Source of the DNA: Fibrobacteria bacterium
GTDB lineage: Bacteria; Fibrobacterota; Fibrobacteria; UBA11236
Reading direction: 5' to 3'
Assembly (NCBI GenBank): GCA_043745805.1
Contig: JAYTSD010000022.1
Coordinates: 1-22,028, forward strand
Length of the DNA: 22,028 bases
Shown here: positions 4,848-21,908 of the stretch, in pieces
Numbering within the stretch: the stretch's first letter is position 1
Layout of the letters: each line of letters starts with the position of its first letter
Made by a program: the position numbers and the translations under genes
The notes under the pieces: model-generated
What the model was told of the DNA's origin: nothing
Seen by the model: only the letters and a program-made list of their open reading frames with translations
Databases searched by the model: none

Positions 4848-5609
4848 ATGAATGGAATCAGTTTAAGAGATGATTTTTTCAAACAAATATCCAATCAACC
4901 TACCGCCATGGGATTATTCGAATATATTCCCGATACTTATTTTTTTATAAAGGACACTGCGGGGCGATTTATCACCGCAAATAAAATGTTCCTCGAATTT
5001 TCGGGATTAGCAAACGAAAAAGAAATTTTAGGGAAAACTGATTTAGAACTTTTCCCGCGACATTTAGCGGAAAGTTATTTGCGCGATGATTTACAAATTA
5101 TGACTACCGGTGAACCAATAATCAATCGTCTTGAAATTAGTCGTAATACCATGGGTGAAATAAATTGGTATTGCACTACCAAAATCCCCTTATATAACGA
5201 GACGGGCGCCATTATTGGCCTTGTGGGTTTTTCGCGTGATATTAAAAAATCCAATAGTTCCTTCAAACCTTTTGAAGAAATGTCGATAGTCATTGATTAT
5301 ATCATGGCTAATTATCATGAAGCGATTAACTTAAAGAAATTAGCCGCCTTATCTTCGCTTTCCACAAGCCAATTTGAGCGTCGTTTTAAAAAGAACTTTC
5401 AAGTTACCCCCACTGAATATATTCAAAACGTGAGGGTACAAGCTGCTTGCCAATATTTAAGAGAGAATGAGCAACCTATTGCTTGGATTGGAATGAAAAC
5501 GGGTCATTACGATCATAGTCATTTCACCCGTTACTTTACCAAAGCCATGGGAATGTCACCCAAACAATATCGCGAAAAAAATAGCATAGTAAATAAAAAG
5601 ACTATGTGA
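4848..5609 (+). CDS. AraC-family transcriptional regulator with N-terminal PAS domain
   Basis: PAS-like FFIKDTAGRFITAN…ILGKTDLELFP…TTKIPLY…IIGLVG. AraC double HTH LAALSSLSTSQFERRFKK…TPTEYI…R…A…L…GHYDHSHFTRYF…GMSPKQYR. Confidence 0.93.
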   Translation: MNGISLRDDFFKQISNQPTAMGLFEYIPDTYFFIKDTAGRFITANKMFLEFSGLANEKEILGKTDLELFPRHLAESYLRDDLQIMTTGEPIINRLEISRNTMGEINWYCTTKIPLYNETGAIIGLVGFSRDIKKSNSSFKPFEEMSIVIDYIMANYHEAINLKKLAALSSLSTSQFERRFKKNFQVTPTEYIQNVRVQAACQYLRENEQPIAWIGMKTGHYDHSHFTRYFTKAMGMSPKQYREKNSIVNKKTM

Positions 5610-5635: not shown

Positions 5636-6718
5636 TTAAGCGTTACAAGCAATTGAAATAGCTTCCCTAGCATTTTCACCCAGCCAAGTACATCCCAATC
5701 TACTTTCGACGTTTCCCAAGCTAGGAGATTCTATACCCTCCGTATCCAGAAGAATACGAATTTGATAGTCCAAAGAGTCTAATAAAAAATCATCGATTAA
5801 AGCGCGTACTTTTTTCTCTATTTCACTTCGCTCTTCTGAAGAGTGAGTCACAAAACGAGTGAATTTATTTTGGGGTAAAGGACCAATGATAATTTCAAAA
5901 CGCGAAGCATCGTCGCGCATTTTCTCCCCTAAGAGTACCGTTTCGCCCAGTTTATTACGCGTTACCCCTAAATAAGTTTTAGCAGGTATCTCCACCCAAA
6001 CCCCTCGAAATTGCACAACTTCCACGCGAGGAAAACCAAAATAATCTTGCAATAATTGCTTTAAGCTTTGCGCGGACCGCACGCGATGACCCAAAAACCG
6101 CCCGTAAGGTAACCTTTGTAAATCAGGTTTAATTTCCTCGGAGCCATCTGACTTGCGCGGCAAAACCCATTGGCCAGTTAAGGCTAATAAACACTGCGTA
6201 TAGGGATCGGAACCATCGGCCTTGAACTCCACATAGTGGCGATATTTTTTCCAAGAACGATAAAATAATGAATGCAGGCGATGACCAAACATATCGAGGA
6301 ATTTTTTTAATTCAAAATATTCTCTTTTATGCAAAGTAATGGGATCGACAAAATAAGAGGGTAACGGAGAGGATACCCCATACAGTCCCATAAATGTTAC
6401 CGCCATGCGCAAGGGACCCTCTGGACTATCTAGCCATTCCTGAAAAGTATTATGTCCTTCTCCAGGTTTCATGGCTTTGTTAAGTTCTAATTCATCGGCT
6501 TGTGCTTCAAAATTTGCAGGAAGTTTAAGGTTGGCAATTTCGGCGGCCGGAAAAGAAATAGAATTCGAGACTTCTATGCGAATGGCCTCGCTTTGCAAAT
6601 CATCACCCGTGCCGATTTGACCTGGTCGAGCCTTTAATCTCTCAGTTAAATAAATAGCCTGAAAGAAATTGAGATCCTGCGCTTCTTTTAAAAAGAACTT
6701 GTCTAAATTGAGTGACAT
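5636..6718 (-). CDS. tssG: T6SS baseplate subunit TssG (VasB)
   Basis: FFQAIYLTE, SISFPAAEI, VTFMGLYGVSSPLPSYF, FLDMFGHRLHSLFYRSWKKYR and FEIIIGPL. Likely start is ATG 6718 after GGAGG, overlapping the tssF 3' end by 16 nt. Confidence 0.93.
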   Translation of the reverse strand: MSLNLDKFFLKEAQDLNFFQAIYLTERLKARPGQIGTGDDLQSEAIRIEVSNSISFPAAEIANLKLPANFEAQADELELNKAMKPGEGHNTFQEWLDSPEGPLRMAVTFMGLYGVSSPLPSYFVDPITLHKREYFELKKFLDMFGHRLHSLFYRSWKKYRHYVEFKADGSDPYTQCLLALTGQWVLPRKSDGSEEIKPDLQRLPYGRFLGHRVRSAQSLKQLLQDYFGFPRVEVVQFRGVWVEIPAKTYLGVTRNKLGETVLLGEKMRDDASRFEIIIGPLPQNKFTRFVTHSSEERSEIEKKVRALIDDFLLDSLDYQIRILLDTEGIESPSLGNVESRLGCTWLGENAREAISIACNA

Positions 6719-8451
6719 GTTCCCTCCAGCGCATCCAGCGCTAGAACTTTTCCCGAAGGCACACATTCCAATCGTAAAGCGACCAAATGGTTAATGGAAG
6801 TGTATTGCGTAAAAAATGAAAGTAATACGCGCGCAAAAATAAAAAGCTCACCTGTTTCGGCAAAAGTTCCATCTTTAATTTGCACATTGATTTCTGTACC
6901 TCGCACTAATTGTGTGCCCTGTAAAAAATCTTTTTTCTTGGCTTCCGCATCAAAAATGCCTTCTAATATTTTTCGATTGATGGGGCTATGTGTCCAATCG
7001 TAAAGCGATAGGGTTTCACGCAAATTCCCCTTTTCACAAAGAGAGCGATAATTCATATTCATATGCGAAAGCACATACCATAAATAATGATCAGCCTTAG
7101 GCGGATAAATAGGAGGTGTAGGACGCGTGAAATTCGTGAAACTACAAACATTGGGGAAATCCGCCGAGGGCACGGTTATGCTATCTTCCAGCATGCTCTC
7201 ACGCGGTAAGCCCGAGTCCGAGGCGAGTATGGTTACCGACAAAACTTCTTCGCTCAATGCGGTCACTGCATCCGTATTTCCAATGGCTATATAAGTACTC
7301 CAATTTTTTCCACCACGCAATTCTTGGCGAATTTGATAATAAGGCTCGCGACCTTTTTCTCCCGTCGTAAAAACACCATGACGAAAATCTTGAAAGCGTT
7401 GATAGTTGCGGCGTTTTCCAGTTACCTTATCTATGCCTATCACTTCGGTTACTTCATAAGCGTCCAAAGTTCTTTGACTACTTGGCCTTAATGAGTATTC
7501 AAAATGTTTATGATTTAAATTTACCGGCTCGGTTTGCGTTTCAAATAAATTAACCAAAGGCACAGCATACAATTTAAAGTTTTCCACTTTAATTCTTTTG
7601 CCTTCGGGTAAAGGCTCTTCAAAATAAATGCAAAGCGAAAAACGTCCTTTTGGAAATTTAGATAATTTATCCAAACCTTGAAAACGGATATAGCGAAATT
7701 TTTCTTCGAAACAAAAAAATTCTTGTAATAAACGGCTTCCTTCAAATGAATTTCCAGGATTCGGCCATAAATTTTCGGTTTCCAAAAACCCACCCGTTAA
7801 AATCGTTTCCTGTCCACCTAATTCAATTTGTTTACCCTCAAATTCAATCATGGTTTTTTTAACTCGGGCCGTGAGAAAATAATAAAGGAAATAAACCAAA
7901 GGTCGCTCGCCATGCAAGTACATGGGTAATTCGGCTATGGATAAAGTTTCAGTTTCCGCCGTAGGATCGACCGTAAAATGAAATTGAAAACCTTCTCCAT
8001 AAACTGGATGATAATTGCGTTCAAAGTTTTCCAGTTGAATGGGATAAAGTAAAGTGTCCTGCGTGGTTTGAAAACGACACACCGCATTTTGCAGCCCCAC
8101 ACTACGCGACAAAACTTGGGTTCCCTTTGGAATTTTTTTTTCGCCAGTAAGTGCACCCACTTTAACTTGAAATTGTAGCATGGCAAAAGAAGGGATGCAG
8201 CGTAAAAAAGAAGGGGCTACCATTTCCAATAAATTTTGAGTGAACTCGGGAAAATCATCATCTAATTTTTGGCGAATACGCGCACATAAAAAAGCAAAAC
8301 CTTCAAATAAGCGCTCTACATAAGGATCGCGATCTTCCACTGCATGGATATTGAGGTAACGTGCACGTTCTGGGAACGCCTCAGAAAACTCCTTGCCCCC
8401 TTCTTGTAAATAGCGTAGTTCTTCTTCATAATATTGTTCAAAAGCAGCCAT
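6703..8451 (-). CDS. tssF: T6SS baseplate subunit TssF (VasA)
   Basis: YYEEELRYLQEGGKEFSEAFPERA, DPYVERLFEGFAFL.ARIRQKLDDDFPE, LLQEFFCF, VPLVNLF and FFTQYTSIN. Confidence 0.96.
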   Translation of the reverse strand: MAAFEQYYEEELRYLQEGGKEFSEAFPERARYLNIHAVEDRDPYVERLFEGFAFLCARIRQKLDDDFPEFTQNLLEMVAPSFLRCIPSFAMLQFQVKVGALTGEKKIPKGTQVLSRSVGLQNAVCRFQTTQDTLLYPIQLENFERNYHPVYGEGFQFHFTVDPTAETETLSIAELPMYLHGERPLVYFLYYFLTARVKKTMIEFEGKQIELGGQETILTGGFLETENLWPNPGNSFEGSRLLQEFFCFEEKFRYIRFQGLDKLSKFPKGRFSLCIYFEEPLPEGKRIKVENFKLYAVPLVNLFETQTEPVNLNHKHFEYSLRPSSQRTLDAYEVTEVIGIDKVTGKRRNYQRFQDFRHGVFTTGEKGREPYYQIRQELRGGKNWSTYIAIGNTDAVTALSEEVLSVTILASDSGLPRESMLEDSITVPSADFPNVCSFTNFTRPTPPIYPPKADHYLWYVLSHMNMNYRSLCEKGNLRETLSLYDWTHSPINRKILEGIFDAEAKKKDFLQGTQLVRGTEINVQIKDGTFAETGELFIFARVLLSFFTQYTSINHLVALRLECVPSGKVLALDALEGTCHSI

Positions 8452-8474
8452 GCGAAATCCTTTATTTCTTTACC

Positions 8475-8915
8475 TTAAGCCCGTGAGCTTTGTGGCGATA
8501 CCGAGGTTTTTCCCGATGATTCAAAACTAGTTTTAAGACGAATTCTTTCTCCGCCTATTATAGTGGCGCTTAATTCGAAGGAAAGTCTAAATTCCAAAGG
8601 GTCCACGGGAATAGGACGCACCACCACTTTTTCTAAACGCGGTTCATATTTATTAGTGAGCTTTAAAATACTTTTTTCTAATTGCAATAAACTATCGGGT
8701 AAATTACGGTACACTTCCGTAATATCCGGTAAACCATAATCATCAAGATGCGGAACCGATCCTTGGCGTGTATTAAACATTCGCCATAAATGTTCTGCAA
8801 TACTTTTGATGCGTCTCTCACGAGCTGGAACACTTTCGGTTTTTGTGCCATCTACGTATTGACCTGATATTTTTTCAAAAAGGCTTTCGCCCGTGAATTG
8901 TTGGGATGCTGCCAT
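8475..8915 (-). CDS. tssE: T6SS baseplate subunit TssE (gp25-like)
   Basis: SLFEKI…HLWRMFNTRQGSVPHLDDYGLPDI…YEPRL, the gp25/TssE signature. Lies between hcp and tssF. Confidence 0.93.
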   Translation of the reverse strand: MAASQQFTGESLFEKISGQYVDGTKTESVPARERRIKSIAEHLWRMFNTRQGSVPHLDDYGLPDITEVYRNLPDSLLQLEKSILKLTNKYEPRLEKVVVRPIPVDPLEFRLSFELSATIIGGERIRLKTSFESSGKTSVSPQSSRA

Positions 8916-8927
8916 AAAATTAAAGAT

Positions 8928-8957
8928 AAAAAAAGGGCCGGTGATAAACCGACCCTT
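8928..8957 (-). terminator. Rho-independent terminator downstream of hcp
   Basis: Minus strand reads AAGGGTCGGT-TTATC-ACCGGCCC followed by a run of 7 T, starting 21 nt after the hcp stop. Confidence 0.8.
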
Positions 8958-8978
8958 AACTAATACTTTCGCAAGTAA

Positions 8979-9470
8979 TTAGGCGTGAGTACGATCTTCC
9001 CAATCGTCAGATGCCATAATACCACCTTCTTCAATACTCCAAGTAATTTTTGAATAGGTGAAAGAAATATTTTCCATGTGAGGAAGATATTCAAAATTCT
9101 TGTCTTTTACGCTCTTCATATCCGTTTCGATATTAACGATATGCACGCCTTCGAGAAGATAGGTGAAAAACAATTCTTCGCCACCTTTTGGGTTTACGCG
9201 ATTGATTTTAATTTCAGCCGTTTTAATGGTCTCATTGGTGCAAAGCATATGAAATAATAAAGGGGAACTTTTGTCCAAAGCCTTACAAATAATCATAGGC
9301 TTATGCATACGACGACCAGTTGCTTGGCCGGTATGTGCATCACGAGGAACAGAAACATCATGGGAAATAGAAAGCACTTCAATCGTGTCTTCATGTCCTT
9401 TTTGTTTTACAGCGCCTTTAATTTCACCCGATTTGGTGCCAACGATTTTGAGGTATCCTGATCTAGCCAT
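8979..9470 (-). CDS. hcp: T6SS inner tube protein Hcp (TssD)
   Basis: YLKIVG..SGEIKG, HDVSVPRDAHTGQATGRRMHKP, KALDKSSPLL and ENISFTYSKITW. Strong RBS AAGGAG upstream. Confidence 0.97.
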   Translation of the reverse strand: MARSGYLKIVGTKSGEIKGAVKQKGHEDTIEVLSISHDVSVPRDAHTGQATGRRMHKPMIICKALDKSSPLLFHMLCTNETIKTAEIKINRVNPKGGEELFFTYLLEGVHIVNIETDMKSVKDKNFEYLPHMENISFTYSKITWSIEEGGIMASDDWEDRTHA

Positions 9471-9552
9471 TTTATATCTCCTTAATTTGGTGTTCTTTTC
9501 TAAAGTCCGGTGTTACTCTCACCTTGAAGTATAATATCGTATTTATTTTTGC

Positions 9553-9582
9553 CCCTTTCTGTGACCACCGTCACATAAAGGG
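9553..9582. other. Intergenic stem-loop between tssC and hcp
   Basis: CCCTTTCTGTGAC-CACC-GTCACATAAAGGG, a 13-bp stem with 1 mismatch. There is no U-tract on the coding (minus) strand, so it is more likely a stability or processing hairpin than an intrinsic terminator. Confidence 0.55.
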
Positions 9583-9604
9583 AAACTTTTTTAAAAGTTC
9601 TTGC

Positions 9605-11095
9605 TTAACCTTTGCCCTTAGGCATTTGTGAAACAAGTTGCAAGTTCACATCGATACCTTCGACTTGAAAATGCGGTTGTACAGCCATAGCCACTGAGAA
9701 GAAACCAGGATTATCAGCCTTTTCAGAAACCGTAATCTTAGCAGCGCTTAATGGACGTAAAGCCGCTAATTCTGGACTAGGATTTTTCATTTCCGTTACT
9801 AAACTCTTGATCCAAGTATTCAACTCCGCTTCCAATACCGCAGCGCTCTTAGTGGCTCCAATATTTTCACGTTGAATCACCTTGAGATAATGTGCTAAAC
9901 GAGAAGTAAGCATGATATAAGGCAAGCGAGAGTTAACTCTTGCATTGGCAGATACCGCTGGATCATCATACGCTTGAGCTTTCTGAGCAGAGTTTGCCGA
10001 GAAAAAGCAAGCATAATTACGATTTTTATAAAAGCTTAAGGGAATAAATCCTTGATTGGCAAATTCAAATTCCCGAGTTTCAGGAATTAAAATTTCCGTA
10101 GGAATTTTCATTTGATTGCCACGACCCACATCATATAAGTGAATGGGTAAATCTTCAACCTTACCACCACTTTCAGGACCGCGAATTTGTACACACCAGC
10201 CATTATCTTGGAAAGAGCGCATCATATTAGCCGCGAATGAAAAGGAAGCGTTACCCCAGCAATATTTTTCATGCTCATCGCCGGTAACTCGCTCGGTATA
10301 ATTAAACTCTTTAATTGGTGCCGTTTCTTGGCTATAGGGTAAGCGCAAAAGAAAACGAGGTAATACTAAACCAGTATAACGTGCATTTTCACTTTCACGG
10401 AAAGCTTTCCATTTCAAGAATTCAGCACGATCCATATAATTAGCCAAATCTTCAATGGCTGGTAAATCACGAATATCTTTCTTTAAAAAGAATTCACTAT
10501 TGGCCGCACCGATGAACGGGCAATGCGCCGAAGCAGCAATTTTGGAAAGATTTTGCAATAAAGCCACATCTTGAGGTTTCGAATTAAATTCATAATTAGA
10601 AATAATAGCCCCGATAGGTTCGCCACCTGGAGTGTCATATTCTTGTGTATAAACATGCTTGTAAAGACCACTCTGAATAGTTTCTGGAGAGTCTTCAAAA
10701 TCTTGTTGTACGGCATCTTTAGAGACATCCAACATTTCAATTTTTGCATTCTTACGAAAATCAGTGCGATCCACTAAGAACTTTAATCCGCGCCATGAGC
10801 TTTCCAATTTTTGAAATTGATCGCTATGCATAATGGCATCGAGCTGGCGAGACATTTTTTCATCAATTAAAGCAATATGCTGATCGAGTAAAGCTTTGTC
10901 GATTTTATCAACTGAGCTACTGCTCTCCACTACACTTTGTACAAACACGCGTAGGGCCGCGCCAATACGTTCATTCGCTTTATGATCAAATAGCGAATCC
11001 GCATCGCGATAACTGGCCAAATCAACTGGGGCAGTTGGTGCCTCCAAGTTCATGGTTTCTAAAATATATTCGAGATTTTGTTTTTGTTCTGCCAT
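9605..11095 (-). CDS. tssC: T6SS contractile sheath large subunit TssC (VipB)
   Basis: QLDAIMHS..FQKLESSWRGLKFLV, EYDTPGGEP, AASAHCPFI, PRFLLRLPY, VQIRGPESGG, REFEFANQGFIPL and RLAHYLKVIQRENIG. Confidence 0.98.
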   Translation of the reverse strand: MAEQKQNLEYILETMNLEAPTAPVDLASYRDADSLFDHKANERIGAALRVFVQSVVESSSSVDKIDKALLDQHIALIDEKMSRQLDAIMHSDQFQKLESSWRGLKFLVDRTDFRKNAKIEMLDVSKDAVQQDFEDSPETIQSGLYKHVYTQEYDTPGGEPIGAIISNYEFNSKPQDVALLQNLSKIAASAHCPFIGAANSEFFLKKDIRDLPAIEDLANYMDRAEFLKWKAFRESENARYTGLVLPRFLLRLPYSQETAPIKEFNYTERVTGDEHEKYCWGNASFSFAANMMRSFQDNGWCVQIRGPESGGKVEDLPIHLYDVGRGNQMKIPTEILIPETREFEFANQGFIPLSFYKNRNYACFFSANSAQKAQAYDDPAVSANARVNSRLPYIMLTSRLAHYLKVIQRENIGATKSAAVLEAELNTWIKSLVTEMKNPSPELAALRPLSAAKITVSEKADNPGFFSVAMAVQPHFQVEGIDVNLQLVSQMPKGKG

Positions 11096-11097
11096 AA

Positions 11098-11607
11098 TTA
11101 CTCCTTACTACCACCATCCGAAGGGACCACGTTTTCAAGCTCTGCAAGAATTCCATCCATTGCGGTTTTATCTTTGATAATACCTTCTAAGCGCTTACGG
11201 AACTCACGATTATCCAATAAGTTCGATCGCAAGTCCTTTAATAAGTTACGTGCGCCTAGCAATTTGCTGAGCTCAGGAACTTGTTTTACAACTTCTTGTG
11301 GTTCAAAGGATTTCATATCCTTGAATTTTAAATTCACTTTTAAATCGCCGCCGTCGGGATTGATTTTGTTCTCTACCGAGAAATCCAATTTCAAATCTAA
11401 GCTATCCATTACTTGATTAAAATTATCTTTATTTACACTGATTTTTTCTTTATCAGCAAGACGAGTGGTATCGCCCTTTTGGGAAAAGTCACCCATCACT
11501 AACATTTTTAAGGGTAATTCTACTTTTTTTTGAGCGCCGCCTTTATCAACATTCAATTGAATGTTAACGCGAGCTGGCGGGATTTCATTTTGAAAATTTC
11601 CGGACAT
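11098..11607 (-). CDS. tssB: T6SS contractile sheath small subunit TssB (VipA)
   Basis: FQNEIPPARVNI…GAQKKVELPLKMLVMGDFS…F.PQEVVKQVPEL..LL.ARNLLKDL. RBS GAGGAG. Confidence 0.98.
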   Translation of the reverse strand: MSGNFQNEIPPARVNIQLNVDKGGAQKKVELPLKMLVMGDFSQKGDTTRLADKEKISVNKDNFNQVMDSLDLKLDFSVENKINPDGGDLKVNLKFKDMKSFEPQEVVKQVPELSKLLGARNLLKDLRSNLLDNREFRKRLEGIIKDKTAMDGILAELENVVPSDGGSKE

Positions 11608-11639
11608 AAAGACTCCTCGGGATGAGTGAAAGGTGAAAA

Positions 11640-11667
11640 ATTATAAAATCTCTGAGCATTAAAACAA
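11640..11667 (-). promoter_or_regulatory. Putative internal promoter for tssB-tssC-hcp
   Basis: Minus strand TTGTTT (11667-11662), 16 nt, then TATAAT (11645-11640), within the 103-nt AT-rich tssA-tssB gap. Confidence 0.45.
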
Positions 11668-11710
11668 ATAATAATGACCTTTTTAAAAGAAATATTGAAA
11701 TGATCGGCAA

Positions 11711-13240
11711 CTAAACCGACAATTGCATTGCCTTTACCGGATCCAAACGACCTACTTTTTGCAAAAACTGTTCCGCTTTTGCTTTGAGCTGAGGTTTTTC
11801 GATTTCATCTGCCGCATCGGCGATAGCATTATACACTTTAAACAATAAGATATAGGCATTCAAACATATTTCGCCGTCCCAATTTTCTAGATCATGCCTT
11901 TGCATTAAATCCAACAATTCCTGCAAAATGAATTGGGCCATGCGCAGTTTTTTGCTGTGATAGAAAAGCTCGGCAATTAAATAGCGGCGGTCAAAATTGC
12001 GAAGAGCGCTGGAATCATTGACTATACCGGTGCGGTAAACGGCTACGGCCTCTTCCAATTTATTTTCGCTCATTAATTCATTGGCCTGCTTGGCTTCTTC
12101 CGCAATATCCCCTTTGCGCTTTATAGCAAATCCGCCTCCACCACCGCCTAATGCGGCTTTCACCGTATCATTTAACCAATCGCGAGTGAGCGCATCGGCA
12201 AATGGTGTTCCATCGGAGTATTGCAGATTAGGAAGATTAGGAAGCCTTTGTAAAAGCAAAGCGATTTCCAACATAATAGCTTTTGCACAGGTGGCATACT
12301 CCCCGCCCATTCCTTGTAAGGCTAAACAGGCATAGCGTTGTAAATCAAACCAGAATAACATATCATCGCGTGTGAAAGCATTTTCCACCCCAGACGATAA
12401 ATTAGCCCAATCCTGACTTTCGACGAGATTAGCAAATACCTGAACAATTTCAGCATCCGGAGGTGGAATTTCGGTTAAGCCATTTTGATTGGGAGGCATA
12501 GAAAGAATATCCGTCCATTTAGTCATACGCAAGAGACGGTAACCTAGAGGAGACTGCACTTGATTTTCCAAATAATAACCGGCTACTTTTTGCAATAAAA
12601 CTTCCGCATCGGAAACGGAGTCTAATGTGCCAGCGCTAGAGGAATTATTGTTTCCAGCATTTCCACCCGATGCCGATGAACTACTGGCTTCCGCTTCAGC
12701 CTTAGGTTCTTCGGGCTTATAACGCTCCGCAAATCCGCGAATCACCTTGAAAAAATTAAGGTAAGCCGTCGATCCTTCGGGTGATTTTTCTTGTAGAAAA
12801 GTTCCTAATTCGCTGAATGCTTTTTGGGCAGCTAAAAGTGCTGGATAATCCGAGGTGCTGCCATTTAAGGCTTCAAGTAAGAAGATGACCCTTTCCCCAT
12901 TTAACCATTTCAAGGCATTTAAACGTGCCGCTGGACGTAAGGGATGGATTTTTTCCCAATGTTCTTTAGTTAATTCGGCATACGCCTGAGCCGCTTCACC
13001 CAAGGCCGTTAAGCCACGATTGATGCCTACTGAAAGACAGAGGAAACCTAAAGATCGCATATCCTTGGCTTTGGCGGTCAAAAGTTTTTTACTCTCGGCT
13101 TCAATTAAATTAAAATCATTGCCCGAGTTTTTTTCCATTTCCAATTTGGCTGCTTCAAATTCGGCTTCATATTGAGGATCTTCACCGCAAAAATTGTCGG
13201 CCTGAATGGGGGCAATTAATTCTTCATAAAGTGTGACCAT
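11711..13240 (-). CDS. tssA: T6SS protein TssA (ImpA_N + VasJ-type C-terminal region)
   Basis: ImpA_N start LIAPI….CGEDPQYE.EF, KAKDMR and W..IHPLRPAARLNAL.W. Low-complexity S/A/G/N linker. VasJ-like YRLLR..KW, FWFDLQRY and LQYSDGTPFAD..TRDWL. Confidence 0.92.
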   Translation of the reverse strand: MVTLYEELIAPIQADNFCGEDPQYEAEFEAAKLEMEKNSGNDFNLIEAESKKLLTAKAKDMRSLGFLCLSVGINRGLTALGEAAQAYAELTKEHWEKIHPLRPAARLNALKWLNGERVIFLLEALNGSTSDYPALLAAQKAFSELGTFLQEKSPEGSTAYLNFFKVIRGFAERYKPEEPKAEAEASSSSASGGNAGNNNSSSAGTLDSVSDAEVLLQKVAGYYLENQVQSPLGYRLLRMTKWTDILSMPPNQNGLTEIPPPDAEIVQVFANLVESQDWANLSSGVENAFTRDDMLFWFDLQRYACLALQGMGGEYATCAKAIMLEIALLLQRLPNLPNLQYSDGTPFADALTRDWLNDTVKAALGGGGGGFAIKRKGDIAEEAKQANELMSENKLEEAVAVYRTGIVNDSSALRNFDRRYLIAELFYHSKKLRMAQFILQELLDLMQRHDLENWDGEICLNAYILLFKVYNAIADAADEIEKPQLKAKAEQFLQKVGRLDPVKAMQLSV

Positions 13241-13279
13241 TATTTCCTCCGAACAAAGTTCACTGGTACTACAAGTCTA

Positions 13280-16200
13280 TTAATGTTGACTAAACTGTTG
13301 TTGTGCATTGTTATCGATTAAAGTTGGCGAACATTCGAATTTGAAAAAATCAGGATTCACAAAAGGATGTTCCGCTTCTTGCACATCGCCATCCAATTTC
13401 ACATCAATATCATATTTTTGTGCCACGCGAAAGCGCCATTTGGCTGTAAAACCGCTAGCTTGTGGACTAAATGCGCGTGCAGCATCAAGTAATTTAAACA
13501 TGCCGAAAGGACCATCGAAGCGTTTAATTTCGGATCCACCACCAATATAATTCACAGCCAATTCCGCACCATCTTGCACATTTTCACCTGGCCAACGAAT
13601 ACGTTGTTTCGCTTGGCCTTCTTTGTTTTTGACCTGAATTTTATCCGCCCCTAAACGAAAGCTTACACTGGCTGTATTGGGAGATTCCGCTAAGATAAAA
13701 CCCGTACTATACAAACGGGGCGTGGCAGAATTATCCATGTAAAGGCGTCCAGAAATTTGTAAACCTTGTTCTAAAGTTTTTACCGCTTCGGGACGAATAC
13801 GAATTTTTAATCCATTCCAATGTTTAACCGTTAATGCGCCGTCTGCGTATTTCACCACCGGCCCTAAACGCGCTTGCATAAACTTCGCTAATTTTCCATC
13901 CGCTGAATTAAAGAACACTTTCAGATCTTCCAAATTAGTTTCTTGACCCGCCCCTTTTACAAAGGGATAGCGGCCTTGAAATTTTTGCGTGTAAAAATTG
14001 ACCACATTGTCCTTATACATTTCTTCCAATTTTTTTTCGGAAAAACCAATGAGAATCGAAACGGCATCGCGTATGGGATTTTCTAATAATGGTGTAAGCC
14101 AAGCCTTGGCATCGTCGGGAGCTTGATCTAATGAGGCACGAGCTTCACGCCACGCTATGGAAACAGGATTTTGGGGCTTGCCTGCAAAAATATCTTGCGT
14201 GAATTCCAGAGCCGCCGTTCCGCCATCATCATTAATAGCCAATTGCCCCATCACATCGCCCAAACTTTTAAGCGCATTAAAATAACTTTGCAATTCCCCA
14301 TTACCCGCATTGCCATTGAGTTTATCAATGAATGCAAATTTTTGTTTTAACTCTTTCTTCGGATCGCGACCCCCTTCAAAAAGTAAAGCTTTGAGCCTTC
14401 CCAACTTACTGTTATTTAATTTTGCGTCCGTGGCTTTTTCCATTTTAGTGGGTGCTTTATCCAAATCCACTTCTTCTTGCAATTTACCCAGCACCGCGGG
14501 CAAGCCTTGATTGGTAGAGGCATAAGCAATAATTTTTGCGGAAGCGAGCGAAAGCTCACCAGGCATCGACAAGGTTAGCCCTTGCAAATATTGCACCCAT
14601 TCTTGTGCATATGCTTGATAATAACGTTCCACTAAAGCTTTATGTAATTGCCTTTCATCTTTCATATCTTCCGGCAAAGCCATTTCTTGTCCGATCACCC
14701 AATCTTTTTGATGAGGCTCTTGTGCGCCATGTTCCAAGGCATCCATTGCTGTTCCATCATAAGCCGCATGGGTATAAATCCCTCGTATACGCCCACTATG
14801 CCGCAATAAAGCATCCGCTGGAACACCCATATCATTTAAGGCTATATCCGGCGCGTCGCTAAAACGATTCACTACCGAAGAAAACAAACCTTCGATACTT
14901 GGTGAGCCTAATAAAGCTTGGCGTGCATCCGCTATGACTTTAGGATCTCCTATCGAGGGAGGCCTAATTTTTTTGTCTACGATGGCATGGGCATAAAGCT
15001 TCGCATGTTTATCTAAACTATTAGCCATATTGCTTACAGCATTTTCAGCCCCGATTTTACTTAATAATTGATCCGTCCAAATAGCCGAAAGCTGAGTGCC
15101 TATGACGTCTGCATCTACATTCTCTAAATTTTCTTGACCTTTTTCAGAAAGCACTAAATACAACTTAAGCTTGTCGTATAAAACACTGCGATCATTAGGA
15201 TTAAAATACTGTGAAGATATTTGTAGCGAGGCTTCTAATTGGCGAAGAGCATCGCGAGCCACCATATTCTCGACTTGAAAAGCATGCATTTTAATAGCAG
15301 CCTCTAAGGCCGAGGAGGCGTGCAGGTAACCCGGAGGATACATCCACGAACTACCCTCTGTACGAATTTGTTGCAGTTTTTGAATCGCCTCATAAAGCTT
15401 TTCTAAACTTGAAAATTCTTTAGCGAAAGCGGCAGGTTCACGCCACTTTAAATGGCTAGCGACTAAAGCTACATCGGCCGTTTCACTAGAAAAACGATAG
15501 CTTTGTATAAAACCAATGGAGGAATAACATAGTAACAAGAAAGCTACCGTACCGACAATAATCGAGCCCCATAAGGATCGCTTCGACAAGCTACCCAAAC
15601 GATAGGCGGAAATACGCGCTAAGCTTTTGTCATTTTTCAAAACACCACTAAAAAATAGTTTGGTGAAATAAGTCACGACCTTGGGACCGGCACCAGGTTG
15701 GGCAAATACCGGCGCTTTTTGTGCCGCGCGAGGATTAAGCACATGACCTATTATGGTATCGCCACTTTGTGGTGAGGAAGCAAAAGCCGCACCGGCATCA
15801 GGTAACGTAGAAGTTATGCTGGTTAAAAAGAATCCGCGGAATAAAGCGCTTTCTTTGCGAAGATTTGTTTTGAATAAAAATTCTACAAAGCTGGCTAACT
15901 TTTCTTGCGCCGCGCCTAATTCATTATGGAAAAGAAAAACTTTGGGCTTAGTGGCTCCTTGCGTTTGGGCAAGACGGGCATAGGTTTTACGAATAACCCC
16001 TTCCCAAATCTTTTTGAATTCCCGTTCAAAGCGCTGTTTAGCTGGCGCTAAATTGCCACTCAAAGAAAAAGTCGCGCCTAAAATTTGTTCGGCTTCAAGG
16101 CCTTGTAAATTATCAAAGAACTCCGCAAAGCCCGGAATCAAATCCGCATGTGTAAACATTAAATAAACGGGCAATTCCAATTTCAAAGTGGTTTGAATCA

Positions 16201-16906
16201 AACCGATACGATCGCGAAATTTTGCGGCGAAGTCTTCGATATTATCATTGCCCAATAAATCTTTAAGGCTCACCACCAATAAAAGTCCATCTAGCGCTTT
16301 CGACTTGCCTTCTTTTTCAATGATGGAAAGCCATGCTTGAAATTCATCATCCCCTTCGAGGCCACTTAAATAACGCGCCGGAGTCTCAATAAAAATCCCT
16401 TGATTGGAAAAATTCCATTGGGAAAAATGTTGGGTTTGCGCCGCTCTTTGTCGCTCTTCAGGATATACTCTCGGAAAATGCACACCACCATTTTCTAATA
16501 AGGACGATTTACCCGAACCTTCTGCGCCGATCATTAAATAAAACAAAAAAAGATCGAGGGGGTTTTGTCCCACTTTTACTTTACTTTTGCCGCTTTGTTT
16601 TAAAATACTTAAAGCCGCCAAAGTCTCTTCGCGTAACGGTTCCAGCCAAGTATTGGCCATTAAGCTCTTATCGGAAAACCCCGCAAAAGATTGCGTGGAA
16701 TCTTTTTGTTTTAAAGCTTTTTGCATGCGCACAAATTGCACAATTAAAATAACAATGAGCCCAATAATCAAAGGAATGGCTGCACCTAATAAACGTGACC
16801 CAATGCCTTGCGCTCCCATAAGAGGTAAGAGAAAGAATAATATTAATGCTAATAATAAACTACTGAGCGAAACCCAAAACCAAACCGATTTAAATACCTT
16901 ACCCAT
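13280..16906 (-). CDS. tssM: T6SS membrane complex subunit TssM (IcmF)
   Basis: Two N-terminal TM helices, Walker A GAEGSGKS, LPVYLMFTHADLIPGF.EFF, FRGFFLTS, a third TM helix, and periplasmic GRYPF, FDGPFGMFKLL and HPF…FKFECS. TAATG overlap with tssL. Confidence 0.95.
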   Translation of the reverse strand: MGKVFKSVWFWVSLSSLLLALILFFLLPLMGAQGIGSRLLGAAIPLIIGLIVILIVQFVRMQKALKQKDSTQSFAGFSDKSLMANTWLEPLREETLAALSILKQSGKSKVKVGQNPLDLFLFYLMIGAEGSGKSSLLENGGVHFPRVYPEERQRAAQTQHFSQWNFSNQGIFIETPARYLSGLEGDDEFQAWLSIIEKEGKSKALDGLLLVVSLKDLLGNDNIEDFAAKFRDRIGLIQTTLKLELPVYLMFTHADLIPGFAEFFDNLQGLEAEQILGATFSLSGNLAPAKQRFEREFKKIWEGVIRKTYARLAQTQGATKPKVFLFHNELGAAQEKLASFVEFLFKTNLRKESALFRGFFLTSITSTLPDAGAAFASSPQSGDTIIGHVLNPRAAQKAPVFAQPGAGPKVVTYFTKLFFSGVLKNDKSLARISAYRLGSLSKRSLWGSIIVGTVAFLLLCYSSIGFIQSYRFSSETADVALVASHLKWREPAAFAKEFSSLEKLYEAIQKLQQIRTEGSSWMYPPGYLHASSALEAAIKMHAFQVENMVARDALRQLEASLQISSQYFNPNDRSVLYDKLKLYLVLSEKGQENLENVDADVIGTQLSAIWTDQLLSKIGAENAVSNMANSLDKHAKLYAHAIVDKKIRPPSIGDPKVIADARQALLGSPSIEGLFSSVVNRFSDAPDIALNDMGVPADALLRHSGRIRGIYTHAAYDGTAMDALEHGAQEPHQKDWVIGQEMALPEDMKDERQLHKALVERYYQAYAQEWVQYLQGLTLSMPGELSLASAKIIAYASTNQGLPAVLGKLQEEVDLDKAPTKMEKATDAKLNNSKLGRLKALLFEGGRDPKKELKQKFAFIDKLNGNAGNGELQSYFNALKSLGDVMGQLAINDDGGTAALEFTQDIFAGKPQNPVSIAWREARASLDQAPDDAKAWLTPLLENPIRDAVSILIGFSEKKLEEMYKDNVVNFYTQKFQGRYPFVKGAGQETNLEDLKVFFNSADGKLAKFMQARLGPVVKYADGALTVKHWNGLKIRIRPEAVKTLEQGLQISGRLYMDNSATPRLYSTGFILAESPNTASVSFRLGADKIQVKNKEGQAKQRIRWPGENVQDGAELAVNYIGGGSEIKRFDGPFGMFKLLDAARAFSPQASGFTAKWRFRVAQKYDIDVKLDGDVQEAEHPFVNPDFFKFECSPTLIDNNAQQQFSQH

Positions 16907-17748
16907 TAATGCGCACCTGCGTTAAGTTTTTCTAATAAATCGGATACCGAATCCAAGGGTGCCGCGCTAAAATGCATGAGCACAAAATACAGAATTATTG
17001 CCAAAGCTAAAAAGCCAAAAGAAAGTATCCATAATAAACGTCCAGTATTTTCTTTACTGGCTTTACCCGGATGCACATTGGCGGAAGGCGATAAAGCTTT
17101 GGGAGCCGCACCGCGCACCGCATCGATTTTCTTCAACATGTTACTTACAACCACGGGAAGCTTTTCGGTATTGTGTAGACGGTAACGTCCTTGGAACCCT
17201 AAGGCTAGGCATAAATAATAGACTTCTACCGATTCAATATTGCCGCGTAAATCGGCTAACATTTCTTCGAGACGTACAAAAAAATTCTCGCCCGCATTGG
17301 GATCTTTAAAAAATTTATCCTGCAAAGGCGCTTCTATCCATTGCTGACGACAAGCATGATGGGAATTAATCACCGCTTCATCAAGAAATGCTGTCAATGC
17401 ATATTTAGCCTGCTCCACTTGATCCGAAGGCTTGCGCGCTAAAGCACAGCTCCGTTCAAATTCTTTGAAATAAGAAAGCAAAAGTTTTTGCAAAGCTTCA
17501 GCAGGACCGATATCCGAAACTTCAGCTATCTTAATTCCAATCAATAATAAATCCATCGCATAAGTCGCTAGATTCGGTTGATCTTTTTGCTCCGCACTCG
17601 CTCCAAAAAGCGTTTGTCCTGCACTGGCCCCTTGGCTGCCGAACATGGTTTGCACTGCGCCATCTACCCAGTTCAAAGTTCCTTCGGATGGAGCCCGCTG
17701 CGAACGAATGGGCTGGGCCAAGCTTTTTTTTTGTCCGGGTTGCATCAT
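16906..17748 (-). CDS. tssL: T6SS membrane complex subunit TssL (DotU family) with N-terminal extension and no OmpA domain
   Basis: AKYALTAFLDEAV, W…PLQ..FF….AGENFF.RLE and EVYYLCLALGFQGRY. Single C-terminal TM helix and a short tail. Confidence 0.95.
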   Translation of the reverse strand: MMQPGQKKSLAQPIRSQRAPSEGTLNWVDGAVQTMFGSQGASAGQTLFGASAEQKDQPNLATYAMDLLLIGIKIAEVSDIGPAEALQKLLLSYFKEFERSCALARKPSDQVEQAKYALTAFLDEAVINSHHACRQQWIEAPLQDKFFKDPNAGENFFVRLEEMLADLRGNIESVEVYYLCLALGFQGRYRLHNTEKLPVVVSNMLKKIDAVRGAAPKALSPSANVHPGKASKENTGRLLWILSFGFLALAIILYFVLMHFSAAPLDSVSDLLEKLNAGAH

Positions 17749-17752
17749 AGTT

Positions 17753-19096
17753 TTAGTCCAATACAGCTATCAATTCAAGTTTAGTAGAAGGCATATCCGA
17801 AGGCAAATGAATAGCCAAGGCTTTACCCTGCCTCACCTGATCCCAAAGTTCACCTGCTTGTTGTAAACGGAAATATTTATAACCTGCTTTAGCCGGAATG
17901 GATGAAGGTGGATTCGCCTCTGGAACCAAAGGTATGCCTGGTAAAGCCGAATTGACAATCGCTTCGAGGCGACCCACGGGGCCGACCTTAGATTTACGCT
18001 GGACATGCGTGAGTATATCCACTTCTGAAGCTTGCGCGGTCACACCCAAATAGAATTGGCCAATATGAGCAAAGTCCGCTTCACGTAGATTTGCCAAGTA
18101 TTGAATAGGACTGGTTTTTGTCAAGGCAAAAATACGGTAACCTGTAGGTACCGTAGCTCCCAAGAGACTTTCAATCAATTGAAATAAAGGCAAAAAACTT
18201 TGTTGTAAATCGCCATGGCGATAGGCGGGCAAATTGTCTAATTTGGTTTCCGAACCAAAGCTGAGTAAAGAACCCGCAAAACCGACAAGCTTTTGAAATA
18301 AGGCTTCGGGATGTGCATGCGGATGATTGTAATTATGTAATAAACCTGGCGCAGCGGTTTGAATAGCCGACAACAACAAATAACTAGTTAAAGTTTCCGC
18401 CGTAAATTGCGCAATGCCTGTGGCCTTTTGCGCACGTTGGCTCATTAGATAATTGCTTTTTTGTACACAAGATTCAGCTAATTTTTTATAACGAGTCATT
18501 AATGAAGTGCTTGCTCCAATTTGTAATAAAGGCGGAATATAATTCTCTTCGAGAATAATTTTGCCTTGCGCATCACGCGTTAATTCCGCAATTTTCAAAG
18601 TTTGAAAACCCGCTATGGACTCTCCTTCAAACAAAAGGCTCAAAGCCATACGACCAAAAACCAAAGGCTTTGCATTAAGGCCTGTATTCAAATCCAAAAC
18701 TTCACGGCGGCTTTCTTGATAGCGCGCCGTTTTACTGCCTTTATTCTCAAATGCGAAATTGGGATTATTTTGGCCCACCGAAGGCGCCGCCACATAAACA
18801 CCCAAACGTTCTTTAGCAGCAGGGAAAGCCTCTTCAAATGGCCGTGCATCGAGCCAAGTATCGCGCAAGGGAAATGCGAAATAGGAACCATCAGGCAAAA
18901 TACCAGTACATTGTTTGGCTGAAAAATATCCGCGCGCCAAAGCTTCTTTATCGATTTCCAAGGCCGCCAGCCCAAAGTTAAAGGGCGACAAGGCATTCAG
19001 CTTGTCATTTAAAACTAAGTCCTGTAGCCAATCGGCTTGTTGAAAATGATGGGGAGATAAGGCCATGCCCTCGGACCAAATTATTTTTTCACTCAT
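17753..19096 (-). CDS. tssK: T6SS baseplate subunit TssK (VasE)
   Basis: KIIWSEGMALSPHHFQQ, GILPDG, YIPPLL, HPEALF..L..FAGSL, YRHGDL, ALPGIPL…PP..IP…G..YF and LELIAV. Confidence 0.96.
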   Translation of the reverse strand: MSEKIIWSEGMALSPHHFQQADWLQDLVLNDKLNALSPFNFGLAALEIDKEALARGYFSAKQCTGILPDGSYFAFPLRDTWLDARPFEEAFPAAKERLGVYVAAPSVGQNNPNFAFENKGSKTARYQESRREVLDLNTGLNAKPLVFGRMALSLLFEGESIAGFQTLKIAELTRDAQGKIILEENYIPPLLQIGASTSLMTRYKKLAESCVQKSNYLMSQRAQKATGIAQFTAETLTSYLLLSAIQTAAPGLLHNYNHPHAHPEALFQKLVGFAGSLLSFGSETKLDNLPAYRHGDLQQSFLPLFQLIESLLGATVPTGYRIFALTKTSPIQYLANLREADFAHIGQFYLGVTAQASEVDILTHVQRKSKVGPVGRLEAIVNSALPGIPLVPEANPPSSIPAKAGYKYFRLQQAGELWDQVRQGKALAIHLPSDMPSTKLELIAVLD

Positions 19097-19268
19097 ATTT
19101 TATCCGGCATTAAATGTGAAACAGTTTGCAAATTTAGCTTAATATCTAAATTACAGAAGCAAAATCTATATTACTGGTTAATCCAATTTTCGGTGTATTT
19201 TCGTCCGGTAAAAATCCAAAGGCGATCCACCGAGCAAACGGCAAAAAATTAGGAAAAGGGAGCCTGAA

Positions 19269-20591
19269 GTGAAGCTGCAAAAAATGATATTGAATAAAAA
19301 TTATCTATTCCTTTTTCTCGCTATAGGTTTATTCGGCAAAGGCCTATGCCTAGCTGCCGACGGGCAATTAAGCCTCGAAACCACCCCATCCGGTGCGGAA
19401 ATTTGGTATGCAAAAAGCGGCAGCGCCGATAAAAAATACTTAGGTGACTCGCCCTTATTGCATCGCAATCTCCCCACAGGGAAATACGATCTTTTACTCA
19501 TCAGCGCCGATCATGACTCCCTTTTGGTAGACGATGTGGAAATTTTGCCCGGGCAACAAACGGAAATACGCAGGGAAATGAACTCCCGCTATGGTACTTT
19601 GGAATTGCAGTCTTGGCCGGATAGTTTAACGATTTGGTTGGATGGCACCAATATTGGCCAAACACCCTACACACATACCTTGATGTTACCTGGCACCTAT
19701 GCTTTAAAACTTTCCTCTCCCCGTCCTTTATTCAAACCCAGCATTTCCTCAGTGACCATGGGCAAAGGAGATACTATACATTTGAAAAAAAGATTGGCTT
19801 ATCGGGATAAAAACTTCTTAAAAGAAAATTTGGGCATATTGCCTTGGCATTTGCAATTAGAAGGAGGCTTAAAGTATAGCAGCATTTCGGGTGCCTATGA
19901 CACGGCTGGTAAAGTTTCCAACTTTGCCACCAGTGATAAGTTAACGCAATGGGATTATCCCGTTACGCTTCGTTTGGGCTTACCTTATGATATAGAAACA
20001 CATTTATTGGTACCGTTTAATTCGTTTGCAGCCAAAGATTCCGCGGCTCCGCATTATAGAGATTTAAAAATCGGTGCTAAATACACTTTGCGCGAATATA
20101 ATGTAGGCTTTGACGCGAGTTATAGTTTCGGTTTAGGCGATACATCGTCTACCAAAAAAACTAGCGGCCATAATGCTTTATCCCTTTCGCTAATAGCTTT
20201 AGCGAACAAGGATAAAATTATGGGCTTTGCCAATGCAGGCTATACTTTTAATTTCAATGACAAACTGAAAACCAAACTCGACCCAGGTGATGAAATTTTT
20301 CTTTATGCTCAGGTCGGTTATCTATTAGACTCTTTTATGCCTTATCTGGGAATTAATGGAAATTATGATCTTGTCAGTTCCTTTGATGGGAAATCCGGAA
20401 ATGATGCGAGTTATGTTGTCACACCTGAAGTCGGTTTCACCTTAGATTTTCCCAGCTATACTTCAGTGCAACTAGGAATTCCATTTACAGTAATTGGAAA
20501 ATCAGGGTCTAATGAATCAGGTATTGGAAAAAGAGTATCAAATGAATGGGGTATGCATTTTTCCTTAAGCGTTAATTTTGGAATTGATTAA
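19269..20591 (+). CDS. Outer-membrane protein: signal peptide + two PEGA domains + C-terminal beta-barrel (Phenol_MetA_deg-like by pattern)
   Basis: GTG start after GGAG (ATG 19284 is an alternative). Signal peptide ending …GLCLA. PEGA repeats GQLSLETTPSGAEIW…YLGDSPL…LPTGKYDL and YGTLELQSWPDSLTIWLDG.NIGQTP…PGTYAL. Amphipathic beta-strands (LRLGLPYDIETHLLVPF, DLKIGAKY, FANAGYTF, LYAQVGY) ending in MHFSLSVNFGID. Confidence 0.75.
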   Translation: MKLQKMILNKNYLFLFLAIGLFGKGLCLAADGQLSLETTPSGAEIWYAKSGSADKKYLGDSPLLHRNLPTGKYDLLLISADHDSLLVDDVEILPGQQTEIRREMNSRYGTLELQSWPDSLTIWLDGTNIGQTPYTHTLMLPGTYALKLSSPRPLFKPSISSVTMGKGDTIHLKKRLAYRDKNFLKENLGILPWHLQLEGGLKYSSISGAYDTAGKVSNFATSDKLTQWDYPVTLRLGLPYDIETHLLVPFNSFAAKDSAAPHYRDLKIGAKYTLREYNVGFDASYSFGLGDTSSTKKTSGHNALSLSLIALANKDKIMGFANAGYTFNFNDKLKTKLDPGDEIFLYAQVGYLLDSFMPYLGINGNYDLVSSFDGKSGNDASYVVTPEVGFTLDFPSYTSVQLGIPFTVIGKSGSNESGIGKRVSNEWGMHFSLSVNFGID

Positions 20592-20829: not shown

Positions 20830-21072
20830 ATGGTTACGAAAACAGTTACAATGCGATTACCGTTAAACTTGTACAATCAAATCTCCACTTTGGCGAAAGA
20901 AGATAATAGGCCCATTTCAAATTTTCTCGAAACTATAGCCCTGCGTTATATGGAACAGTCGTCCCTCATGGATGAATTCGAAATAAAAGAGATTAGAGAA
21001 AATAAACAACTGACGGATAGAATTAAAAAAGGTCATGAAAGTGCTAAAAAGGGCCGAGGCCGTTTTGTCTGA
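20830..21072 (+). CDS. Ribbon-helix-helix (CopG-like) antitoxin
   Basis: KTVTMRLP…Y..I..LA..DNRPISNF is an RHH pattern. Small protein with C-terminal …AKKGRGRFV, overlapping the downstream toxin gene. Confidence 0.85.
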   Translation: MVTKTVTMRLPLNLYNQISTLAKEDNRPISNFLETIALRYMEQSSLMDEFEIKEIRENKQLTDRIKKGHESAKKGRGRFV

Positions 21073-21346
21073 AGGTTATAAAGTTTTTGAGACGGATATT
21101 ATTCTTGAAGACCTAGAAGATTTTCCAAAATCAATCCTCGAAAGATTGAAACTTAAAATTAAAAATCAGGTATACCCTACTCTGAAACAGCAGCCTTATT
21201 TTGGGAAAAACATTAAAAAATTAGTGAATTATGATCCAGAAACGTGGCGATATAGAATTGGTGATTTTAGATTATTTTACGTGATTGATGAGAAACGCAA
21301 AGTCATATCTATGCTAACTATTTCGGCAAGAAAAGATGCTTATTGA
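21065..21346 (+). CDS. relE: RelE/ParE-family type II toxin (about 93 aa)
   Basis: IKKL…WRYRIGDFRLFYVID…I..RKDAY, a RelE-type motif. Likely start is TTG 21065 (TTGTCTGA overlap with the antitoxin stop, GAGG upstream) rather than ATG 21035. Confidence 0.88.
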   Translation: MSEGYKVFETDIILEDLEDFPKSILERLKLKIKNQVYPTLKQQPYFGKNIKKLVNYDPETWRYRIGDFRLFYVIDEKRKVISMLTISARKDAY

Positions 21347-21579: not shown

Positions 21580-21828
21580 TTAGCACTGTTTTGCGGACCA
21601 GTTTAATTCGGTTCGGTGTATTATATTATTTCGGACGGGAACAACTCGGTGTATGATAAGAAATTGGCCGGGGACAACTTCATGGTCTCGTTGATCGCCG
21701 ATGTACCTAAGCTGGCACCGATAGTCTGATCGAAATGGACCCGAATGACCACCTTCTACAGCTAAGTTGAAACGAACCTTGCATAGGGGAACAAATGAAA
21801 AAGCCGGCTTACTAAAATCAGGTTGCAT
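21580..21828 (-). pseudogene. Stand-alone EF-Tu domain III-like small protein, probably degenerate or truncated
   Basis: AGAGGT RBS before ATG 21828. VRF..VEGGHSGPFRSDYRCQLRY aligns by eye with EF-Tu EGGRHTPFFKGYRPQFYF. The similarity is lost after about residue 50. Confidence 0.4.
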
Positions 21829-21908
21829 TGTTTTACCTCTTTATTCTGGGATAGGCATGTAGTTCCAAATCTTCGCGGGCGAGAGTCCTGGCAAATATGA
21901 ATTTGGTA

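Follow-up and report, generated by a model that had tools for sequence, protein, structure and literature searches.

The canonical type VI secretion system (T6SS), T6SS-i, ties its TssL-TssM channel to the outer membrane by means of the lipoprotein TssJ. To our knowledge, no other part of the machine is as poorly conserved or understood as this outer-membrane fastening and passage. Several lineages lack TssJ, and the only solutions that we know to have been worked out are those of Acinetobacter (TsmK) and Bacteroidota (TssNQOPR). Here, we focus on a T6SS-i operon without tssJ from a Fibrobacterota metagenome-assembled genome (MAG), and in particular on the gene that faces tssK, which encodes two PEGA domains followed by a predicted beta-barrel (protein P0001, the PEGA-barrel protein). 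The window, meaning the whole stretch of 22,028 nucleotides that was analysed, is a complete contig of 22 kb (C22) of a genome of 3.95 Mb in 50 contigs (G000, 99.2% complete). Comparison across the phylum indicates that the PEGA-barrel gene is very probably a dedicated component of the T6SS.

The T6SS cluster and the PEGA-barrel gene

The minus strand of the window carries an uninterrupted operon, tssK-tssL-tssM-tssA-tssB-tssC-hcp-tssE-tssF-tssG, which runs from 19096 down to 5636 with every frame open. All ten core genes have a Pfam match far above cut-off (table 1) and, because TssL, TssM and TssA are encoded, the cluster is assigned to T6SS-i. The gene for ClpV (TssH) lies on contig C15 (4892-7429; TIGR03345, 1067 bits, above cut-off) and vgrG on contig C37 (TIGR03361, E 1.7e-106), and the operon in the window is therefore only part of the T6SS. 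A preliminary description of this DNA, made from the letters alone, had named an operon beginning at tssK with a divergent signal peptide-PEGA-PEGA-barrel gene 172 nt upstream; open reading frames (ORFs), Pfam and an AlphaFold2 (AF2) model confirm this layout and the ten core genes, though not a complete system.

The PEGA-barrel gene has a GTG start preceded by AAGGGAG. Its co-regulation with tssK from the shared intergenic region, which had also been proposed, found no backing in a scan limited to sigma-70-like sites, as no such promoter was found in the 172-nt spacer. The public sequencing runs listed for the organism are four DNA runs from one sediment study, and no RNA run is listed.

Table 1. 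Positions in the window of the T6SS genes and of the PEGA-barrel gene with its parts.
Feature	Position	Strand	Basis or remark
tssG, last gene of the operon	5636..6766	-	Pfam
tssF	6703..8451	-	Pfam
tssE (gp25-like)	8475..8915	-	Pfam
hcp	8979..9470	-	PF05638 E 1.1e-35
tssC (VipB)	9605..11095	-	Pfam
tssB (VipA)	11098..11607	-	Pfam
tssA (ImpA_N + VasJ)	11711..13240	-	Pfam
tssM, 1208 aa	13280..16906	-	four IcmF domains: IcmF-related_N, IcmF-related, IcmF_helical, IcmF_C
TssM residues 880-1208, periplasmic C-terminal part	13283-14269	-	used for complex prediction
tssL (DotU family)	16906..17748	-	PF09850 E 7.5e-45
tssK, first gene of the operon	17753..19096	-	PF05936 E 9.9e-111
Divergent intergenic region tssK / PEGA-barrel gene, 172 nt	19097..19268	.	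promoter scan
PEGA-PEGA-barrel gene (P0001, 440 aa)	19269..20591	+	ORF, PF08308, AF2 model
Signal peptide, residues 1-30, type I, no lipobox	19269..19358	+	model helix 10-25
PEGA domain 1, residues 32-103	19362..19577	+	AF2 model; motif P-S-G-A-E (P-x-G-A-E type)
PEGA domain 2, residues 109-175	19593..19793	+	PF08308; alignment; retained in all family forms
Conserved linker, residues 176-193, YRDK.F..ENL	19794..19847	+	R179 invariant in 39 rows
Predicted outer-membrane beta-barrel, residues 194-438, COG4313/FapF-like	19848..20582	+	AF2 model (~12 strands), Foldseek

Conservation beside tssK

Fifteen full-length homologues (40-45% identity) were made into a profile, with which 296 Fibrobacterota genomes were searched, as they were for the TssK family; the synteny count takes in the window genome and G254. 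For 89 of the 120 profile matches tssK lies 158-887 bp away, and all 89 of these, from 82 genomes, are divergent from it. The pairing spans two classes and many families, at 22-45% protein identity, and survives three different rearrangements. In the searches made here, the PEGA-barrel protein is found only in Fibrobacterota.

A hand tally by genome gives both genes in 89, tssK only in 25, a PEGA match only in seven and neither in 175. The 25 genomes with tssK only comprise 12 with a much more distant tssK (family f6), six of genus g40, where the one locus viewed has a kinase gene adjoining tssK and no PEGA gene, and seven others, in which at least two tssK matches start within about 40 bases of the contig's first base. 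The seven genomes with a PEGA match only include five with weak partial matches, the other two being G278 and G244. In G278, the genes from tssM to tssG share a contig with the PEGA-barrel gene, which follows tssG; the closed genome G274 has tssK about 1 Mb away and the PEGA-barrel gene divergent from clpV; and G281 has its gene inside a cluster with clpV and vgrG.

Relatives that lack tssK complete the comparison. Genus g6, which belongs to the same family as the window genome, has 12 genomes; ten of them are without tssK, and the full-length gene occurs in none of these ten, which give one weak barrel-only match. The T6SS-free genera g21 (tssK in 0/101) and g22 (0/19) have no PEGA profile match. 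Both halves of the expectation voiced in the preliminary description, that homologues would stay adjacent to tssK and be missing from T6SS-negative relatives, are thus borne out for the full-length gene.

The distant tssK of family f6 belongs to genus g19, where it is found in 12 of 14 genomes (E 1e-24 to 1e-49; for example locus L046, G093:C222). Upstream of it, in the same orientation, are small ORFs whose N-termini are hydrophobic and signal-like, and neither tssJ nor the PEGA gene was found in these genomes. The clusters may represent another kind of T6SS in the phylum.

Absence of tssJ and its mutual exclusion with the PEGA gene

No match to TssJ was found in the window genome, of which all but 1113 bases were covered, with PF12790 at E <= 0.001 or with TIGR03352 at E <= 1. 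Of 14 named genomes that served as controls for these stock models, E. coli alone gave matches above cut-off, and a hidden Markov model (HMM) was therefore built from the four TssJ sequences known in Fibrobacterota; its best match among 14,143 six-frame ORFs of the genome has E 0.29. A regular-expression search found no lipobox ORF in the window and no candidate beside clpV. The claim that the window lacks a lipobox-bearing tssJ accordingly stands, and by the profile searches the absence extends to the genome.

PF12790 is able to detect TssJ in Fibrobacterota, because four tssJ genes of the phylum were found with it, in just four of the 296 genomes. The four proteins have 195-204 aa and a Cys-bearing signal, and each gene lies directly before tssK and overlaps it. 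None of these four tssK loci has a PEGA neighbour (0/4) and, seen from the other side, none of the four is among the 85 tssK rows that have one. Genome G070 bears both kinds of cluster about 7 kb apart on one contig (L106, G070:C4:67500-78500), with a tssJ-tssK-... arrangement and, further along, a kinase-PEGA pair divergent from tssK. Since the tssJ-bearing copies of tssK lack a PEGA neighbour, the two genes fill the same slot in alternative clusters.

The PEGA-barrel protein

The AF2 model of P0001, built with a 39-row alignment (mean pLDDT 90.3, pTM 0.75), consists of a signal helix, two like beta-sandwiches, a well-ordered linker and a barrel, for which a hand count on the DSSP string of the model gives about 12 strands. 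The hydrophobic N-terminal signal is without a lipobox, as Leu precedes Cys27 and the Cys is missing there in 14 relatives; beyond the signal peptide, no hydrophobicity of transmembrane-helix grade was found in the protein. Pfam calls a single PEGA domain in P0001 (residues 109-176, E 2.8e-11, 43.6 bits vs a cut-off of 20.8), and PF08308 is matched by 39/39 family members. Modelled alone, the PEGA pair reaches pLDDT 92.2; its structural matches, at Z 8-9, are to transthyretin-like, carboxypeptidase-D regulatory and CnaB domains, which form a generic beta-sandwich class.

The top Foldseek match of the barrel is the COG4313 channel of Pseudomonas putida (4rl8_C: E 9.8e-12, TMt 0.74, rmsd 3.7), followed by the amyloid exporter FapF (PDB 5o65; E about 1e-9, TMt 0.57-0.66). 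P0001 itself has no barrel-family match in Pfam, PF13557 (Phenol_MetA_deg) included; this family is matched by 3/39 relatives (best E 1.2e-7) and OMP_b-brl by 2/39. We infer that the barrel is located in the outer membrane; its even strand number would place the PEGA domains in the periplasm. FapF, too, has an N-terminal periplasmic domain before its 12-strand barrel. Display of the PEGA domains at the cell surface, as in an autotransporter, seems less likely: no helix connects PEGA domain 2 to the barrel in the model, and the forms of the family in the sister class put the PEGA module in the periplasm.

Other searches gave little. A sequence search of the PDB found nothing useful for the protein, and the ESM Atlas returned generic PEGA/CarboxypepD_reg clusters only. 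A single-protein search of public genome contigs gave no match; an alignment-based contig search gave 14 loci, all from Fibrobacteria or Fibrobacterota MAGs, and the relatives recovered by name are likewise all MAGs of uncultured 'Fibrobacteria bacterium' or 'Fibrobacterota bacterium'. Public records annotate the homologues as 'hypothetical', 'PEGA domain-containing protein' or even 'amylopullulanase'. The last name is attached to P0005, a homologue of 427 aa whose domain content gives it no backing.

Variant forms of the family

In families f11-f18, for which the sources name Chitinivibrionales or Chitinispirillaceae, the same slot is occupied by a short form of 230-300 aa. This Chitinivibrionia form (L031-L040, e.g. 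L039:1093-1875, minus strand) begins with a signal peptide, has both PEGA domains and continues with two strongly hydrophobic segments with Kyte-Doolittle values of 1.5-2.4 over 19 residues. A cultured relative, Chitinispirillum alkaliphilum ACht6-1, reportedly possesses a T6SS (PMC4814513). Judged by their sequence, the two segments of the short form probably form a transmembrane helical hairpin that would serve as an inner-membrane anchor. All ten short forms read end in ...VAFF, and an oligomeric barrel of beta-hairpins was considered for their C-termini; it was set aside because the hydrophobicity equals that of transmembrane helices. The forms of families f7 and f8 (L041:1403-3163 and L042:1307-3016, both on the minus strand), to which the gene of G281 belongs, have 569-586 aa, retain the barrel but, of the PEGA domains, the second alone, and carry an extra C-terminal domain like the FGE-sulfatase family (6/39 members, best E 2.6e-17).

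A barrel-only paralogue is encoded elsewhere in the window genome, as a 297-aa frame (G000:C1:126603-127283, plus strand; E 4.3e-14) that matches profile positions 190-414. Similar barrel-only frames of about 294 aa occur in genomes of genus g3, and none of them has a tssK match within 2 kb on its contig. This distribution suggests that the T6SS protein arose by fusion of a PEGA pair to a barrel-only family.

Predicted contact with TssM

Residues 31-186 of P0001, which hold the PEGA pair, were submitted to complex prediction with residues 880-1208 of TssM, using separate alignments (37 and 29 rows) and three controls. The pair scored 0.51 (runs 0.45, 0.51 and 0.53) against 0.01 for the best control; the runs share at least 87% of their contacts, and the pLDDT of the partner is at least 84. 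In a benchmark, 116 of 157 solved complexes attained this mark, as did two of 215 mismatched pairs. The tool's own verdict is 'weak support', and we count the prediction as modest support because synteny makes a contact fairly likely beforehand. The contact with TssM raised in the preliminary description thus has a prediction well clear of its controls, at the level of weak support only.

A candidate replacement for TssJ

The role that we favour for the PEGA-barrel protein, and that seems to us about evenly poised between right and wrong, is that of a TssJ substitute. The barrel would sit in the outer membrane with the PEGA domains hanging into the periplasm, where they would hold the C-terminal periplasmic domain of TssM. 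The TssL-TssM channel would thereby be tied to the outer membrane, with a barrel instead of a lipid anchor. The barrel would be an anchor and not a passage for the Hcp tube, which is several times wider than a barrel of about 12 strands; with a strand number like that of small channels, the portal role that had also been suggested is unlikely. A stronger version is somewhat more doubtful: that the protein belongs to the T6SS-i membrane complex as a genuine subunit, which grips TssM and replaces TssJ, and that PEGA is a portable TssM adaptor. The anchor of this adaptor would then vary with the lineage: Fibrobacteria would use an outer-membrane barrel, and Chitinivibrionia a pair of transmembrane helices beside a kinase.

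Several points weigh against this role. In the benchmark, scores of 0.60 or less include just 18 of the 157 solved complexes, yet both of the passing mismatches, and 0.51 falls in the band that the tool describes as 'more often wrong than right unless the guess was likely beforehand'. The cluster comes from the MAG of an uncultured organism, and the genomes behind the 89 divergent pairs are related to one another, so that the count overstates the number of independent events. T6SSs without TssJ function by other means, according to the available part of one report (PMC10564176). The orthologues of Chitinivibrionia have no barrel, and their PEGA gene is followed in the same operon by a gene for a PpkA-like Ser/Thr kinase (649-696 aa, with a kinase domain, one transmembrane segment and TPR repeats). 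Because the sister-class orthologues are probably anchored by transmembrane helices, outer-membrane anchoring is not the conserved feature of the family; the core that its forms share is a periplasmic PEGA domain tethered to a membrane. In genome G244, which is 66% complete, there is a full-length gene without a T6SS gene on its 8.9-kb contig, directly after TamB-like and Omp85/POTRA genes (L109:1016-6336, plus strand; G244:C223), and searches of this incomplete genome for tssK and tssM gave no match.

There is, moreover, no sign of kinship between the PEGA domains and TssJ. Comparison with the phylum's TssJ by hhalign gives a probability of 0.2%, TssJ is absent among the 50 rows listed by either structure search of the PEGA model, and none of the 39 members of the PEGA family has a T6SS-SciN match at E <= 0.1. 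On the strength of the missing lipobox, the hhalign value and the listed fold matches, the reading of P0001 as a divergent TssJ is rejected, and the fold relationship between PEGA and TssJ drawn in the preliminary description reduces to membership of the general beta-sandwich class. Of the undescribed outer-membrane anchor for TssM that was proposed there, the T6SS link and the barrel hold, while the helix-anchored, kinase-associated orthologues of the sister class speak against it.

Alternative roles

The kinase gene of Chitinivibrionia, which follows the PEGA gene on the same strand, points to a regulatory or sensory input instead. A signal from the PEGA module in the periplasm would reach a membrane Ser/Thr kinase of the threonine-phosphorylation type and thereby control whether the T6SS assembles, in the style of TagR/RtkS-PpkA, and the barrel form would report the state of the outer membrane. 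Such a role recalls RtkS, a periplasmic activator bound to the periplasmic domain of PpkA according to the available parts of two sources (PMC6082577, PMC13584744), and a structural alignment pairs PEGA domain 2 with chain B of 9k1u, an RtkS-PpkA complex (Z 7.7, rmsd 2.6, 68 residues). This fold match is weak, however, since a Z of 7.7 lies in the range that the tool gives for widespread arrangements and is equalled by dozens of sandwiches with no relation to RtkS; a sequence relation between RtkS/TagR and the PEGA protein is not among the findings. The window contains no kinase gene, none adjoins the PEGA-barrel gene at the class relatives' loci examined, and none of the roughly 15 kinase-like frames of the window genome lies in the T6SS cluster. 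At the g40 locus viewed, conversely, a kinase adjoins tssK without any PEGA gene. A regulatory role would also leave the exclusion with tssJ unexplained, and we regard it as unlikely.

Similarly improbable in our view is some other envelope job within the T6SS, in which the protein would help TssM to pass through or lodge in the cell wall and outer membrane during assembly, or would form a channel for small molecules or peptides, with no stable tether. The best structural matches of the barrel, 4rl8 and FapF, are true channels, and the PF13557 matches in three relatives, the barrel-only paralogues away from the T6SS, the FGE-sulfatase-like domain added in f7/f8 and the position after TamB/Omp85 in G244 are all in keeping with this idea. 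It is, however, PEGA domain 2 and not the barrel that is retained in every form, the barrel being dispensable in a whole class, and the complex prediction, weak as it is, favours TssM. That the gene encodes an unrelated outer-membrane protein and is a mere neighbour of the T6SS is very improbable. The gene does lie at the cluster edge, with non-T6SS genes beyond it in the window genome and its g3 relatives, and G244 is an exception to the pairing; yet the divergent arrangement with tssK is kept across 82 genomes of two classes despite the low protein identity, the gene stays by other T6SS genes after rearrangement, and the full-length gene is missing from T6SS-negative relatives.

Comparison with known systems

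The favoured TssJ substitute resembles TssJ (SciN; PF12790/TIGR03352) in its slot beside tssK, which the phylum's four tssJ genes directly precede, in being predicted as a periplasmic beta-sandwich tethered to the outer membrane, and in its predicted partner, the C-terminal domain of TssM (weak). It differs in having neither sequence likeness to TssJ nor a lipobox, in the integral barrel that replaces the lipid anchor, in its two domains against one and in being encoded on the strand opposite to tssK. The COG4313 channel (4rl8) and FapF (5o65) share the barrel fold of P0001, and unlike it have neither a T6SS link nor PEGA domains.

Among systems that do without TssJ or can do so, TsmK (AsaB) of Acinetobacter is comparable, by its description, in that the PEGA gene too is confined to T6SS loci without tssJ; the same argument from exclusion has been made for TsmK in the available parts of two papers (PMC13584744, PMC10564176). 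TagV of Serratia is described in the available part of a review as an outer-membrane protein that permits some T6SS activity without TssJ (PMC13584744); in contrast to the PEGA protein, it is a lipoprotein that co-occurs with TssJ. By these descriptions, TsmK and TagV differ from the PEGA protein in family, architecture and phylum. TssNQOPR of the Bacteroidota T6SS-iii is likewise a non-canonical membrane complex from the FCB group of phyla; the window differs in having tssL, tssM and tssA, hence a T6SS-i. The outer-membrane partner in T6SS-iii, TssR, is a lipoprotein, and the words 'barrel' and 'PEGA' do not occur in the available part of its report (PMC10781749).

No paper that connects the T6SS membrane complex with PEGA domains, an outer-membrane barrel or Fibrobacterota was found in a search that left supplements and most subscription journals outside its reach. 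'PEGA', 'barrel' and 'Fibrobacter' do not occur in the available part of a 2026 review of T6SS accessory factors (PMC13584744).

Neighbouring genes

Just after the PEGA-barrel gene, at 20830-21346 on the plus strand, two small overlapping ORFs resemble a type II toxin-antitoxin pair, with a weak match to RHH_5 (E 3.2e-4, below cut-off) and one to ParE_toxin above cut-off (E 1e-6). Beyond them, an open-ended frame on the minus strand (21762-22028) runs off the contig end; it has a weak match to a transposase HTH domain (E 2.4e-4), and a transposon-like element here may be the cause of the assembly break. At the other end of the operon, a gene for a PAS + AraC-type regulator (4848-5609, plus strand) is convergent with tssG and lies 27 nt from its end. 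As a tblastn search did not find this gene by the T6SS clusters of relatives, a conserved role in T6SS regulation is improbable for it. A frame of 341 aa that lies two genes upstream of clpV (G000:C15:8452-9477, minus strand) has a signal-like N-terminus and Asp-rich repeats, which by eye are like the thrombospondin-type-3 repeats of OmpA-like proteins.

Significance

The PEGA-barrel protein is a new accessory family of a known system, for which no published description was found. The whole phylum offers what looks like a clean natural replacement: a single family, with a high-confidence model, accompanies tssK in 82 genomes and does not share a tssK locus with tssJ. Should binding of TssM by the PEGA domains prove true, the protein would be a third solution to outer-membrane anchoring, and the first in which an integral barrel is so used, and its gene would serve as a marker for T6SS annotation in Fibrobacterota. 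If the protein is a true subunit of the membrane complex, a barrel subunit would have been described for the first time in a T6SS, and the outer part of the T6SS membrane complex would prove to be interchangeable.

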